Virus record (IMG/VR): IMGVR_UViG_2698536549_000028
Span: 1-21,331 of that record
Strand: one strand, 5' to 3'
Source of the DNA: a virus
Taxonomy: Duplodnaviria; Heunggongvirae; Uroviricota; Caudoviricetes
Length of the DNA: 21,331 nucleotides
Part shown: positions 18,001-21,331 of the stretch, in pieces
How the letters are laid out: every line of letters starts with the position of its first letter
Numbering within the stretch: position 1 is the first letter of the stretch
Made by a program: the position numbers

Positions 18001-21000
18001 ATCTCTTTATGGCAGGGGCAGAAACACGCCCCGCACTGGTCCTCGCGCCGCTACGCGTTGCAGCAAGCACATGGCCGGATGAAGCGCTGAAATGGGGGCA
18101 TCTGCGCAATATCGAGGTACAGCCGATTGTTGGTAACGCCAAAGCGCGCTCTGCAGCGCTGGCGAACAGCAACGCGAGCGTTTTCACCATCAACTACGAT
18201 AACCTTGTCTGGCTGGTTGAGGAATTGGGAGAACGATGGCCGTTCGGTACTGTCATTCCAGATGAAAGCACCCGGCTAAAATCCTTCCGGCTGCGAGGTG
18301 GTGGTAAGCGCGCGGCGGCACTGGGCAAAGTGGCGTACAAGTATGTCCGGCGCTGGATAAATCTCACCGGTACGCCAGCACCGAACGGCCTGGTAGATTT
18401 GTGGGGACAAGCGTGGTTTGTGGACCAGGGGCAACGTCTCGGACGCACTTACGGCGCGTTTACCTCACGCTGGTTCAACTCGATACAATTTCCGGGGCAG
18501 AGCTGGACCAAACTGGAGCCGTTTGCTCACTCACAGGGTGAAATACAGCGAGCGTTAGCCGATGTGACCCTCTCGCTGGATGCGGCCGACTGGTTCGATA
18601 TCAAAGACCCCATCCATAACGTAATCCGCGTGGATATGCCGCCGAAGGCCCGTCAGCAGTATCGTGAAATGGAAAAGGAAATGTTCCTCGAGCTGAATGG
18701 CGAAGGCATCGAAGCACCGAACGCCGCGGCAAAGACACTGAAGTGTCTGCAAATCGCCAGTGGCGCAGTATACACAGACGACACCGGAAGTTGGTCAGAA
18801 CTGCATGACACCAAACTACAGGCGCTGGACAGCATACTGACCGAAGCAGCTGGCGCACCTGTGCTGGTTGCTTATCACTGGAAACACGATCTTGAACGCT
18901 TGCTTAAAGCATTCCCTCGCGGTCGTCACCTCGACCAGGATCCACAGACACTGCGCGACTGGAATTCCGGAAAGATTCCTGTTCTCTTTGCACACCCAGC
19001 CAGCGCGGGCCACGGCCTGAACATGCAGGACGGCGGAAACATACTGGTGTTTTTCTCGCACTGGTGGGATCTGGAGCAGTACCAACAAATTATCGAACGC
19101 ATCGGGCCAACCCGGCAGATTCAGGCCGGACACAACCGCCCGGTGTTCATTCACCACATTATCGCCGCCGACACTATGGACGAAATGGTGATGGAGCGGC
19201 GCAACTCAAAACGAACAGTGCAGGACATCCTGCTCGATGCCATGAAAAAGAGAGGTATAGCATGAGCGAGAAACCCGACGATTTACTCACCCCGGATGAA
19301 GTATGCCAAAAGTTAGGTATTACACAGAAAACGCTATGTGAGTGGAATATTAAGCATCGTCATCGGGCTATCCTGGCACCAATTCGTTTCAGTGCAAAAG
19401 TAGTTCGTTATGAGCGCCGCAATGTCGACGCTTTTATTCAAAAGTGTCGCAGCCGGTATTAACCTCGCCGCCGTAGCAATGCCACCTGCGCAAGTATGCT
19501 CCGCTCGTGAGCCTCGAAAGCTTCGCGCTTTAACGCAATCTCTTCCTGTAAAATCTCATCAGAAAAGTCGTAATGTTCTGCCATCGGGTCATCTGACTTG
19601 CTGGAGTGGTGAAGGCAAAGGAGGCTGATTTCCCTTCGGTCTGAGCGGGAATAGCCTCTTTCCTTCATCAAGGCAATAACATTGCTCTTAAGGAATTTAC
19701 GGCACATCGTATTAAATGCACCGTCTTTCCCTTTAACAGTCCCATCATGTTTTATTCCTTTTACAGCCCCGTCCGGGCTGTATGTTTTCACCAGCTTATC
19801 CAGTGATCGTTTTGAAAATGGCTGCATTGGATCACGTGGCTGCAAAAATACATAATCCCTGTTGCACTCAGGAACTGAATCACGCCAGGCTTTCTGCTCG
19901 TCGATAATCCGCCGGATCTCAGGCGTTATCGGCAGGCGGAAAGCCTTTTGTGTTTTCATAGCCCCTCGCATGCCGATAACCCCTTCCGGATAAACAATTT
20001 CACCAGCCTCCTCGTGAACGTAGTCCCAGCGCAGGTTATGGACATTAATCGGACGAACACCAGTGATGATCATGAAGCGAACAGCATTCTTCTGGTGTAC
20101 AGAGGTGCAGGCAGCAACATTGAGCCAGAGTCGGGCGATTGATTCAATATCGGTAAAAAGCCGTGTGGGGGTAGGTTTCTGTACGCGGGAGGAAACATAA
20201 TCATCTGGCAGACTGGCGGCAACATTGCGGCCGTTGCAAAGAGTAGGTGCGCAGAACTTCCAGAACCGACGGAGCTCGGCAAACAACTCCAGGGCGTTAT
20301 TGTTCGAGCGAGTGGCGATCCACTCGTCCAGCACTTCCACCAGCCGATTGTATGTTACGTCGCTGAACACCTCGCGCTCGCCGAACGTTGCTTTAATCCG
20401 GTCGATACGCACCCCGTAGGTTGTGAAACTGTCCGGGCTCAGCTTCTGCCGGGCGACTTTGGCTTTGAGGTCATCCCGGTACATTTCCAGCGCTGCATGT
20501 ACGGACTCTGCCCGCAGGCCACCGTCAGCCATACCTAGCGCTTTTTCGCGCGCCAGCTGGATAGCGAGCTCCGGCCACTCGCCGAGCTTTTTACCCTTGA
20601 GGCCCATCTTTTTTGGAAACTCGGCGTAAAATGTAACCTTACCGGCTTTGCTGAAATCGATACGGAGATAGTTCTCTTTTTCGTATTTGGAACGGCGAGC
20701 CACGCCGGAAGCAGCGAGGATGATTTTGGCGGCAGCAACACAGATTTTCATGTGTGCGCTGGTATAGGGGGGTTTACAGGCGTCCCATTTTTCAGAAGCG
20801 GCTAAAACATCGTCATTATTGGGGCTATCCGGATTATGTGTTACAGTGCGCGGCATTCTCAATCCTTATCTGCGTAGGCGCAGAAAACAAGCTCACACAT
20901 ACAAGTCTTTTCTACGGGACAAAATGCAATGTGTTGCGGTTTTGTGTTGCTGGACTGAGTTTATCAAGGTTAAATACACTGGATCAACATACAGTAAGTT

Positions 21001-21331
21001 AATGACAGTAAAGCATACAGACTCGATACAACTTACTGATTTTAAAATGATTTAACGGTAATCCATTGAAATGTCTTTACTAATTACTAAATGCTGTATT
21101 AATTGTGATATGTGTGAACCCGAATGCCCGAATGAGGCGATTTCAATGGGAGATCATATCTACGAGATTAACAGCGATAAGTGTACCGAATGCGTAGGGC
21201 ACTACGAGACACCAACCTGCCAGAAGGTGTGCCCGATCCCCAATACTATTGTGAAAGATCCGGCGCATGTCGAGACAGAAGAACAGTTGTGGGATAAATT
21301 TGTGCTGATGCACCACGCGGATAAAATTTAA

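Follow-up and report, generated by a model that had tools for sequence, protein, structure and literature searches.

The 21,331-nt stretch of viral DNA analysed here (the window) closes with the integration/excision module and the right-hand junction (attR) of a ~47-kb Stx2b prophage, a reading to which we give a probability of about 0.85. Sequence comparison shows that recombination took place within an 18-bp identity in the coding sequence of the host ferredoxin gene yfhL. The phage supplied an in-frame 5' end (codons 1-10 plus 214 bp of upstream DNA), rebuilding an intact 86-aa yfhL beside int. An int/xis module at yfhL is of an ordinary, already reported kind, and the result is useful mainly as a correction of the prophage boundary.

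Table 1. Positions of the module and junction features in the window
Feature	Position	Strand	Remarks
SNF2-family helicase gene	17871-19265	+	PF00176, E 3.5e-12; phrog_62, E 1.6e-157; RefSeq annotation of the near-identical KY176 prophage
xis-like gene	19262-19462	+	66 aa; MerR-like winged-helix DNA-binding protein, putative recombination directionality factor
TTAA	19459-19462		overlapping stop codons of xis (+) and int (-); 4 nt shared
int	19459-20856	-	465-aa lambda-Int-type tyrosine recombinase of the yfhL-targeting family
int-proximal attachment arm	20857-21070		phage DNA, not host intergenic; GC 0.35; 9/55 identity to native yfhL upstream DNA
conserved CTCACACAT block	20892-20900		inverted copy of core-like ATGTGTGAG; CACA columns invariant; k-mer in common with core
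two direct TGTGTTGC repeats	20930-20937 and 20943-20950	+	candidate arm-type Int-binding sites
IHF-consensus-like site AATCAGTAAGTTG	21029-21041	-	pattern match; TGATT columns invariant across genera
surrogate yfhL 5' end, phage-supplied	21071-21100	+	codons 1-10; native counterpart MALLITKKCI
core identity AATTGTGATATGTGTGAA (attR copy)	21101-21118		18 bp; three-way alignment; strand exchange must fall here
host-derived yfhL remainder	21119-21331	+	100% identical to MG1655

The prophage boundary lies inside the yfhL reading frame

The sequence-only reading had the prophage end adjoining yfhL and confined the attachment site and boundary to the interval 20857-21070. The first part was correct, with host yfhL sequence beginning at 21101. 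The second part did not hold: the core lies within the yfhL ORF, ~30-50 bases further on. Alignment with MG1655 and the left junction of KY176 thus puts the junction outside the interval, which that reading had itself named as the finding that would count against it.

The core was defined by aligning the window with the empty site of MG1655 and with the left junction of KY176. It occurs once in the window, corresponds to codons 11-16 of the 86-codon yfhL and encodes N-C-D-M-C-E of the first Fe-S cluster motif. From 21101 on, window and MG1655 were identical at 231/231 positions, compared with 20/30 nt in codons 1-10 and 9/55 positions upstream of the yfhL ATG, where the native yfhH-yfhL spacer is 55 bp long. 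The matching repeat expected at the other prophage end was found as the 18-bp core in the left junctions of KY176 and the vB_EcoM-606R2 record. These near-identical relatives provided the left junction, the window stopping short of the other prophage end, and the best whole-window coverage among complete genomes was 89%. A left-junction match stopped in L002 where the core ends, and the second, independent left junction broke at the same base. Two lysogens therefore show clean attL/attR with the 18-bp repeat.

A boundary inside 20857-21070 was rejected on the three-way alignment, the K-12 identity profile and the second left junction. The arrangement at first sight invites such a boundary, with a yfhL wholly of host origin, since int starts 214 bp from a seemingly complete yfhL ORF that RefSeq labels plainly as yfhL. 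Against it, the empty K-12 site has nothing that corresponds to the spacer or to codons 1-10, two independent lysogens carry the native yfhL start at the opposite end of the prophage, and spacer and surrogate start travel with int in ten genera. We consider this arrangement next to impossible and place the crossover in the core.

In E. coli and in Serratia phage OS31 the identity stops at one and the same base, which suggests that the overlap region sits to the right within the 18-bp identity. Attempts to recognise core-type inverted repeats or the overlap region from the sequence (e.g. ATATG-N8-CATAT in attP) gave unconvincing candidates. The attP would be expected to read ...ATGTCTTTACTAATTACTAAATGCTGTATT-AATTGTGATATGTGTGAA-ATCATATAAAAACAC..., and the repaired attB would be the K-12 sequence.

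A phage-borne start of yfhL

The chimeric yfhL ORF (21071-21331) is intact, and its product scored 131 bits on equivalog NF033683, where the cut-off is 86. That the ORF is host DNA, as had been assumed, is right from 21101 onward and wrong for codons 1-10 and all DNA upstream, which are phage-borne. The native yfhL start was left at the far prophage end next to yfhH, as 16 native codons followed by two phage codons and a stop (KY176, 606R2). The surrogate and its upstream DNA recurred in prophages of Kluyvera, Citrobacter, Shimwellia, Shigella and others.

It is possible, if rather unlikely, that the rebuilt ORF is cosmetic and that lysogens, cut off from the native transcription signals, are functionally yfhL-negative. 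For the DNA preceding the surrogate ATG, the scans predicted no good sigma-70 promoter or Shine-Dalgarno sequence. In the native arrangement yfhH precedes yfhL by 55 bp and the spacer contains a TATAAT box, and integration parts both from the gene; Bobay et al. 2013 (PMC3603311) class yfhL as disrupted by prophage integration. However, in all intact lysogens read, from ten genera and with Int divergence up to ~40%, the surrogate kept both the frame and the pattern M-x-L-L/I-I-T-K/E-x-C-I, and a start so conserved would hardly be expected unless the encoded protein were under selection. The dusA elements (PMC4482086), as a precedent, also point to genuine restoration of the gene.

A bolder proposal starts from gene restoration and is, in our judgement, improbable. 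The yfhL-specific integrase family would be pan-gammaproteobacterial and would rewire the ferredoxin gene, giving it in every lysogen a phage N-terminus and a control region with Int/IHF sites that is shared divergently with int. Ferredoxin expression would then be coupled to the recombination state, and R8C in the present sequence would set a fifth cysteine by the first cluster ligand.

The 'disrupted' label for yfhL (PMC3603311) is contradicted at the ORF level only.

Candidate protein-binding sites and promoters in the attachment arm

The distance from the integrase start to yfhL had been estimated at ~215 bp, and the gap to the yfhL ATG at 21071 indeed measures 214 bp. In alignment, this int-proximal arm was conserved among prophages of 10 genera, with the TGTGTTGC and TGTGTT columns invariant in all 10. 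The arm-site motif WTGTGTTR, which was defined after the region had been inspected, matched four times in the whole window, three of these in 20836-20949. The distal arm, at the opposite end of the prophage, contained four more copies, giving seven within ~400 bp of attP and one elsewhere in the window. The CTCACACAT block may represent a further Int site, and its pattern and conservation make AATCAGTAAGTTG a candidate IHF site.

The arm must hold the int promoter (- strand) as well as the promoter now driving the chimeric yfhL (+ strand). No promoter scoring at least 9/12 was found on either strand of 20857-21070, and the promoters and terminators predicted in the region occurred at chance frequency; for this reason an int promoter here is putative, as is any expression of the rebuilt yfhL. 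A relaxed scan gave 8/12 candidates, namely TTGATC-18-TAAACT on the - strand at 20987-20958 and + strand candidates ending at 21048 and 21051, which we do not rely on.

The integrase

Identification of int as a lambda-Int-like tyrosine integrase was supported by three lines of evidence. Profile search placed PF00589 at residues 246-359 (30.4 bits against a cut-off of 27.1, E 4e-7), the protein matched the phrog_1 integrase family (E 1.5e-26), and its AF2 model (pLDDT 83.6) found full-length lambda Int (1z1b/1z1g/5j0n) as its best PDB matches over 396-408 columns. The fold search on the model was used because a sequence search against PDB chains returned no match at E <= 0.1. Among 28 homologues, down to 33% identity, R268, K301, R386 and H417 were invariant and Y429 was near-invariant. 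These candidate residues of the catalytic R-K-H-R-H/W-Y constellation stand in the expected order, and it is this order and their invariance, not a superposition of structures, on which their assignment is based; the position three before R386 is an invariant Thr383, not His. The model also showed an N-terminal beta-sheet domain with strands at residues 54-94. Together with the repeated candidate arm-type sites flanking the core, this predicted arm-binding domain marks the protein as a heterobivalent integrase, and it would putatively catalyse attP x attB integration and attL x attR excision.

RefSeq starts int at the ATG at 20856, which gives 465 aa, has an SD-like AAGGA upstream and is kept at the protein level in phage OS31. 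ORF calling extends the frame to a TTG at 20862.

The xis-like gene

The small gene facing int had been proposed as an excisionase, and its MerR-like winged-helix fold, its 70% identity to the annotated excisionase of phage OS31 and its linkage to the int family make this plausible. The protein scored 25.8 bits on HTH_17, just under the 27-bit cut-off, and 16.6 on TIGR01764 against a cut-off of 28.8; several close homologues carry precomputed PF12728 matches. It matched phrog_4745, phrog_66 and phrog_1553. Search of its sequence against PDB chains gave insignificant HTH matches only, and Foldseek with the AF2 model (pLDDT 78) returned mycobacteriophage Pukovnik Xis 4j2n (TM 0.62/0.74), RdfS 8dgl and GIsul2 Xis 8c3t (TM 0.69/0.78), as well as BldC and MerR N-terminal domains.

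These matches leave some room for a protein that is a transcriptional regulator only (AlpA/BldC-like, acting for instance on int or early genes), excision depending on another protein or needing none. RefSeq names it 'helix-turn-helix transcriptional regulator' or 'AlpA family transcriptional regulator', the best PHROG match is a 'DNA binding protein', the top fold matches are to the regulator BldC, and the excisionase models score below cut-off. We regard a purely regulatory protein as unlikely. The gene keeps its place at the int 3' end on unrelated backbones (lambdoid OS31, the PolA/SNF2 phage studied here and a primase-bearing Veronia element), and the solved excisionases Pukovnik Xis, RdfS and GIsul2 Xis match the fold equally well. 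Moreover, the two roles are not exclusive, since many RDFs double as regulators, P4 Vis among them. TorI is another such RDF (PMC2951348). The preferred role is therefore that of a putative directionality factor, which would stimulate excision and inhibit integration.

Convergent xis and int share four nucleotides

The two genes had been described as convergent with stop codons sharing a TTAA, and both ORF ends agreed. The xis-like ORF on the + strand runs from an ATG at 19262 to a TAA at 19460-19462, and the int TAA reads from 19461 to 19459 on the - strand. A second overlap, absent from the earlier description, joins xis to the gene before it: the xis ATG and the TGA of the SNF2 helicase gene form ATGA at 19262-19265. 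Of the replication genes in the long + strand early operon the helicase gene comes last, so that xis closes the operon and is probably translationally coupled to its neighbour. Int is inverted and cannot be read from the early operon. The deduction of separate promoters from the layout holds insofar as int must have one of its own.

The TTAA overlap is no chance feature of the window: 6/8 int/xis pairs from different genera have an identical GTTAATA junction. It was read in OS31, Sodalis, Xenorhabdus, Citrobacter and Shimwellia. The overlap is nevertheless not obligatory, because a cargo gene or a gap separates int and xis in Kluyvera, Serratia bockelmannii, Veronia and Pseudoalteromonas.

We considered a regulatory use of the overlap, in which early-operon and int transcripts would collide or pair and so control Int and Xis levels by interference or antisense action. 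The retention of the overlap in 6/8 cassettes speaks for such a device, as does the terminator scan, which placed no intrinsic terminator between xis and int. On the other hand, four lineages tolerate a 100-bp gap or a cargo gene of 0.5-1.7 kb at this position, making the overlap itself dispensable. The sole nearby hairpin, on the + strand at 19762-19782 inside int, was rejected as an early-operon terminator; it occurs at chance frequency and its codons are not conserved (PDG becomes PEN in OS31). An Rfam scan of 18500-21331 at E <= 1 produced one spurious miRNA match and no known RNA element at the convergent junction. Where convergent genes overlap in compact genomes, a four-base [T/C]TA[A/G] overlap is the most frequent type. 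A functional device thus seems a poor prospect, and the 4-nt overlap would rather reflect genome compaction inherited with the cassette than a required regulatory arrangement.

Proposed operation of the module

The lambda-Int-type integrase, the convergent MerR-like Xis and an attP whose core copies yfhL codons 11-16 together make up the module. Int would bind the repeated (A/T)TGTGTT(G/A) sites on both arms and build the intasome with IHF. It would be made from its own promoter inside the att arm, where autoregulation is possible, as for KplE1 intS. Xis, encoded at the very end of the repressor-controlled early operon, would be made from that operon alone, and excision would then be licensed by induction. 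The target itself is probably favoured because the Cys-x2-Cys-x2-Cys coding sequence of yfhL is nearly invariant across hosts.

Distribution of the cassette

Among 5426 complete E. coli genomes, 160 carried the cassette, one chromosomal copy each; the yfhH-yfhL site was split in 160 and intact in the other 5266. Int was contiguous to yfhL in at least 156/160 of these cassettes, as only four extra places were found. The convergent int/xis pair, mostly with the TTAA overlap, was present in OS31 and in prophages of nine other genera, always beside yfhL, and in ten genera int lay ~214 bp from a full-length yfhL. The xis gene was convergent with and adjacent to int in the window, OS31, Sodalis, Xenorhabdus, Citrobacter, Shimwellia, Kluyvera and S. 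bockelmannii, and a similar small HTH gene was convergent with int in Pseudoalteromonas and Veronia. Even integrases of only 37-68% identity (Shewanella, Pseudoalteromonas, Veronia) adjoined yfhL-like ferredoxin genes encoding Fer4 proteins of 81-85 aa. This distribution shows a portable unit, carried on unrelated phage backbones across Gammaproteobacteria and always at yfhL.

Comparison with known integration systems

The closest described relative is Serratia phage vB_SspS_OS31 (MT843276; Bujak et al. 2020, PMC7556043). Its Int has 465 aa, as here, and is 76.5% identical; its excisionase gene is convergent with int through the identical 4-nt TTAA overlap. OS31 is mitomycin-inducible with a 23-bp att in a 2[4Fe-4S] ferredoxin gene (PMC7556043), in codons homologous to those of the 18-bp core found here. 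A surrogate yfhL-like start of 16 residues lies next to its int, and the TGTGTTGC arm repeats are conserved. The backbone differs: OS31 is a lambdoid member of the Hendrixvirinae, with a DnaQ-like exonuclease gene in place of SNF2 upstream of xis and no stx. The available part of the OS31 paper (PMC7556043) gives the att site and the ferredoxin target, not a gene-restoring surrogate 5' end.

Replacement of a target 5' end is known from the dusA elements (Farrugia et al. 2015, PMC4482086), whose integrases, spread across many Proteobacteria, likewise insert in the 5' end of a conserved protein gene, supply a new 5' end and leave the original at the far boundary. The yfhL prophages share these features: their crossover falls early in the coding sequence, the 5' end that they supply is in frame, and the original one stays at the distal boundary. 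The dusA elements have another target gene and presumably another integrase clade, and the likeness is one of mechanism, not membership; given the different target, the yfhL integrase is unlikely to belong to the DAI clade and is treated as an analogy only.

Lambda resembles the module in its heterobivalent Int (arm-binding N-terminal, core-binding and catalytic domains), its adjacent att site and the small RDF gene at the distal end of the leftward early operon. In lambda, however, the overlapping xis and int genes point the same way and are transcribed together from pL, with sib retroregulation, whereas int is inverted here. The Xis proteins also differ, a MerR-like fold here against the lambda Xis type, and the present target lies inside a coding sequence. 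In KplE1 (CPS-53), with IntS/TorI (Panis et al. 2010, PMC2951348), int begins directly beside att, as here, so that the promoter must lie among the binding sites of the recombination proteins, and int and the RDF gene have no common promoter. KplE1 differs in targeting the tRNA gene argW, and negative autoregulation, demonstrated in KplE1, is only inferred in our case. The convergent layout had been called unusual, which is true relative to lambda; it is commoner among tRNA-associated integrases, 61.5% of which have int pointing away from att with a promoter in the att arm, separate from the RDF gene (PMC2951348).

Stx prophages and database records at yfhL

The sequence-only reading had been uncertain whether yfhL is a known Stx phage integration site. 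It is: the site was published in 2023 (PMC10675304) and again in 2025 (PMC12029490). In the available text, the earlier paper calls yfhL a 'newly identified' Stx insertion site with three prophages, and Table 1 of the later one lists Stx2b at yfhL in STEC1586 and STEC1590, with induction/isolation of both prophages reported as failed. These prophages agree with the present one in locus and toxin subtype. The accessible portions of the two papers (PMC10675304, PMC12029490) name the insertion gene only and do not give the core, the in-ORF junction or the int/xis architecture. STEC1590 (NZ_CP129345) was 98.8% identical over 19000-21331 and matched 70% of the window, and in KY176 stxA2b/stxB2b are annotated 20 kb from int.

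The family occupies yfhL in ~3% of complete E. coli genomes and some of its members carry stx2b. Stx typing and occupancy PCRs treat insertion sites as intact or disrupted genes, while the yfhL ORF stays intact and is annotated as normal in lysogens; occupancy can consequently be missed and prophage boundaries mis-set by ~250 bp. Knowledge of the exact 18-bp core, and of the arm sites, makes it possible to design specific junction PCRs and recombination assays. After dusA, yfhL provides a second clear case of an integrase family that enters a conserved protein gene at its 5' end and repairs it; here the DNA targeted codes for an Fe-S cluster motif. The understanding of integration modules is unchanged by it.

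At least three deposited 'complete phage genomes' from the yfhL site include host genes and omit xis-int. As far as the SNF2 stop, phages vB_EcoM-606R2, -611R5 and -689R2 are identical to the window, as if the cassette had been exchanged at the xis boundary. They are no evidence for such an exchange: the record is a mis-trimmed prophage of the same site, with host tadA-pgpC-yfhH at one end and a cut before xis-int at the other. The mis-trimmed 606R2 record yielded the second attL.

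The prophage boundary lies within yfhL

We compared the empty site of E. coli K-12 MG1655, the window and the yfhH-side far junction of a near-identical prophage, that of E. coli JNEC-KY176 (KY176), by three-way alignment. The sole sequence common to all three was AATTGTGATATGTGTGAA, which corresponds to yfhL codons 11-16 and occurs once in the window. At its other end the KY176 prophage keeps the native yfhL start, with ATGGCGTTGTTAATCACTAAAAAATGCATCAATTGTGATATGTGTGAA directly abutting phage DNA and a remnant peptide left. A second independent lysogen, deposited as phage vB_EcoM-606R2 and carrying a different virion module, showed its break at the same base. 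The alignment, the identity profile (Table) and the native start at the far end therefore place the core and boundary inside the yfhL ORF, 31-48 nt from the interval 20857-21070 to which a sequence-only reading had assigned them. That reading had itself named a junction outside this interval as counting against it, which is the outcome here; the repeat it sought at the other prophage end is AATTGTGATATGTGTGAA, present at the yfhH-side junction of KY176. All 214 bp of the spacer, together with yfhL codons 1-10, are phage DNA.

Features of the window and cargo ORFs of related cassettes
Feature	Coordinates	Strand	Remarks
stxB2b	1-264	-	left edge of window
stxA2b	277-1236	-	left edge of window
tRNA-Arg(TCT)	1328-1404	-	with stxB2b and stxA2b, downstream of Q antiterminator gene
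xis	19262-19462	+	ATG at 19262; 66 aa; TAA at 19460-19462
int/xis stop overlap	19459-19462		TTAA; genes convergent
int	19459-20856	-	465 aa; RefSeq start, ATG at 20856; TAA read 19461 to 19459
CACA block within CTCACACAT	20892-20900		invariant in ten aligned genera
int-proximal arm repeats TGTGTTGC	20930-20937, 20943-20950		invariant in ten aligned genera
TGATT block in IHF-consensus match	21029-21041		invariant in ten aligned genera
55 nt upstream of yfhL ATG			identity to MG1655 9/55
yfhL ORF	ATG at 21071		86 codons; 214 bp from int start
yfhL codons 1-10	21071-21100		identity to MG1655 20/30
core	21101-21118		18-bp identity
core to end of window	21101-21331		identity to MG1655 231/231
cargo ORF, Kluyvera	L005 4501-4881	co-directional with int	126 aa
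cargo ORF, Serratia bockelmannii	L007 4409-5122	co-directional with int	237 aa
cargo ORF, Veronia	L019 4513-6237	co-directional with int	574-aa KAP-family NTPase

The yfhL gene in the window is a chimera in which a phage-type 10-residue start replaces the native MALLITKKCI; against the YfhL equivalog model (cut-off 86) its product still reached 131 bits. Codon 8 (21092-21094) is TGC (Cys8) in the window, Lys8 in native E. coli, and CGC or CGG (Arg8) in KY176, Shigella, E. coli ECMA0423 and all other lysogens compared. As a result of this private R8C change, an additional cysteine immediately precedes the first Fe-S ligand, Cys9.

Comparison of the sequences places the exchange, presumably by Int, within the 18-bp identity; integration strands the native yfhL start next to yfhH and joins a phage-borne start with its upstream DNA to the remainder of the gene. 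Target choice is probably due to the sequence coding for the Cys-x2-Cys-x2-Cys cluster motif and varying across hosts at wobble positions only.

Anatomy of the attachment site

attP was rebuilt from the window and the KY176 distal arm. The motif (A/T)TGTGTT(G/A), defined after inspection of this same region, occurred seven times within ~400 bp around the core and once elsewhere in the window (~20.9 kb), with ~3.4 copies expected per window. Distal-arm copies were kept between two E. coli prophages and, more loosely, in Serratia phage vB_SspS_OS31 (OS31). For arm-type Int sites and IHF sites, the repeats and invariant blocks are good candidates. In MG1655, TTGTGTTG, which lies 18-25 nt before the native yfhL start codon (~7639-7646 of locus L002), matches the arm-type motif, and the wider string GGTTTGTGTTGTTTTGAG resembles phage GGTTTTGTGTTGCTGGACTGAG at 20938-20959. 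This likeness could be chance, or a vestige of the phage's acquisition of a yfhL-like segment.

Int, Xis and their gene context

Int matched PF00589 above cut-off and phrog_1. Among 28 homologues, down to 33% identity, R268, K301, R386 and H417 were invariant and Y429 near-invariant. In its AF2 model (pLDDT 83.6) a beta-sheet domain at the N terminus is followed by a helical domain for core binding and by the catalytic domain; the best PDB matches were full-length lambda integrase structures, over ~400 columns. The OS31 integrase has the same start as the RefSeq ATG, conserved at the protein level.

The 66-aa protein scored 25.8 bits on HTH_17 (cut-off 27), was also below the TIGR01764 cut-off, and was 70% identical to an OS31 protein annotated as excisionase. 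Its AF2 model (pLDDT 78) adopts a MerR-like winged-helix fold, as do mycobacteriophage Pukovnik Xis, RdfS, GIsul2 Xis and the regulator BldC. This predicted fold alone does not separate a recombination directionality factor from a regulator; conserved linkage to int suggests the former role. The identification of both genes is supported, with xis function assigned by inference only.

ORF reading placed the convergent genes and their TTAA overlap exactly as the sequence-only reading had described. It had missed ATGA at 19262-19265, in which the xis start codon shares bases with the TGA that ends the SNF2 helicase gene before it; xis is therefore the last cistron, probably translationally coupled, of a long + strand early operon. 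Antisense within int, ~300 nt past the xis stop, lies a terminator-like hairpin (19762-19782, + strand; ACAGCCC-N-GGGCTGT then TGTTTTC); such matches occur at chance frequency in the region, and the overlapped codons read PDG here vs PEN in OS31.

The window forms the right-hand ~21 kb of the prophage. After tRNA-Arg come the Q antiterminator, a VapE-type primase, a LexA-like repressor and a DUF2800/DUF2815/PolA/SNF2 replication module, whose gene names follow the RefSeq annotation of the close relative KY176 (99.9% identical over 19000-21331). The KY176 prophage occupies ~47.3 kb between yfhH and yfhL, a gap of only 55 bp in MG1655. HNH and NUMOD4 homing-endonuclease-like genes, assigned by homology to the KY176 annotation (L001 8438-10402), are interspersed in the module upstream of DUF2800/DUF2815/PolA (8072-8590 and neighbours).

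Conservation of the cassette

OS31 was the sole phage-collection record with a similar integrase (76.5% identity). Like the window, it has int and an excisionase gene that face each other and share the 4-nt overlap (OS31 1657-1660), and a surrogate yfhL-like start beside int; its published att is 23 bp long and lies within a 2[4Fe-4S] ferredoxin gene (PMC7556043). With one genome scanned per species, the integrase was present in Kluyvera, Sodalis, Serratia, Xenorhabdus, Citrobacter, Erwinia, Shimwellia, Morganella, Shigella and E. coli, each time ~214 bp from a divergent full-length yfhL. More distant integrases (Veronia 68%, Shewanella 47%, Pseudoalteromonas ~37% identity) also lay divergent beside a Fer4 gene, whose product has 81-85 aa and begins MALLI..CINCDMC.

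The GTTAATA stop overlap was seen in six of eight readable int/xis pairs. In Kluyvera and S. bockelmannii a cargo ORF separates int from xis; downstream of int, Pseudoalteromonas and Veronia have a small convergent HTH gene that does not overlap it. Morons appear to have an insertion hot spot at the int/xis junction. The stop overlap is compaction that was inherited, and its loss in four lineages shows that it is non-essential. Different genes lie upstream of xis (SNF2 in the window; a DnaQ-like exonuclease in OS31, Kluyvera and S. bockelmannii; a Toprim primase in Veronia), so the travelling unit comprises the surrogate yfhL start, attP, int and xis.

The cassettes of E. coli ECMA0423 and Shigella flexneri SFBU1023 (L011 and L012, 3001-4097) are decayed: int matched as two pieces that overlap, residues 1-133 and residues 131-366, and is therefore frameshifted or truncated. 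The rebuilt yfhL of ECMA0423 has a 1-nt deletion just after the core.

Relation to known integration modules

The overall order att, int, xis, early-left genes and repressor would be that of lambda, with int inverted. The sequence-only reading described the convergence correctly, and the arrangement is a conserved but ordinary variant of known modules. The int promoter would lie within the att arm, where promoter scans gave only weak candidates. KplE1 intS has the same layout; Panis et al. (PMC2951348) report this layout for 61.5% of tRNA-associated integrase genes, and autoregulation of KplE1 intS. Xis would be made only with the repressor-controlled early operon on, which would provide directionality.

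In earlier reports, yfhL appears among genes 'disrupted' by prophages (2013; PMC3603311), as a newly identified Stx prophage insertion site (2023; PMC10675304), and as the site of Stx2b prophages in STEC1586 and STEC1590, which attempts at induction failed to release (2025; PMC12029490). The site is thus already published for Stx phages, a point on which the sequence-only reading had been uncertain. Replacement of the target's 5' end is established for dusA-specific integrases (PMC4482086). The consulted portions of the cited literature held no explicit statement of yfhL restoration by a phage-borne 5' end, or of this integrase family's yfhL specificity across Gammaproteobacteria; these two points are a modest addition.

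Occupancy of yfhL in E. coli

Of 5426 complete E. coli genomes, 160 carried the xis-int-spacer segment, in one copy each and always chromosomal, and 5266 had an uninterrupted yfhH-yfhL junction (5266 + 160 = 5426). Strain LH50-c was on both lists; its left-junction match stops exactly at the core end. int was contiguous with yfhL in at least 156 of the 160, there being just four extra match places. Only ~6 of the 25 best whole-window matches extended through stx2b; most prophages at yfhL are therefore not Stx phages, and stx2b, judged from these best 25 genomes, is an accessory of a minority.

The 'complete phage genome' ON470579.1 (vB_EcoM-606R2), a myovirus-type, stx-free phage sharing the replication module and integration site with the window, is in fact a prophage from this yfhL site that was wrongly trimmed. 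It opens with host tadA, pgpC and yfhH (1-2254) and ends, without xis-int, exactly at the SNF2 helicase stop (41349-42743). Matches of ON470588.1 and ON470582.1 to the window stop at this SNF2 end as well.
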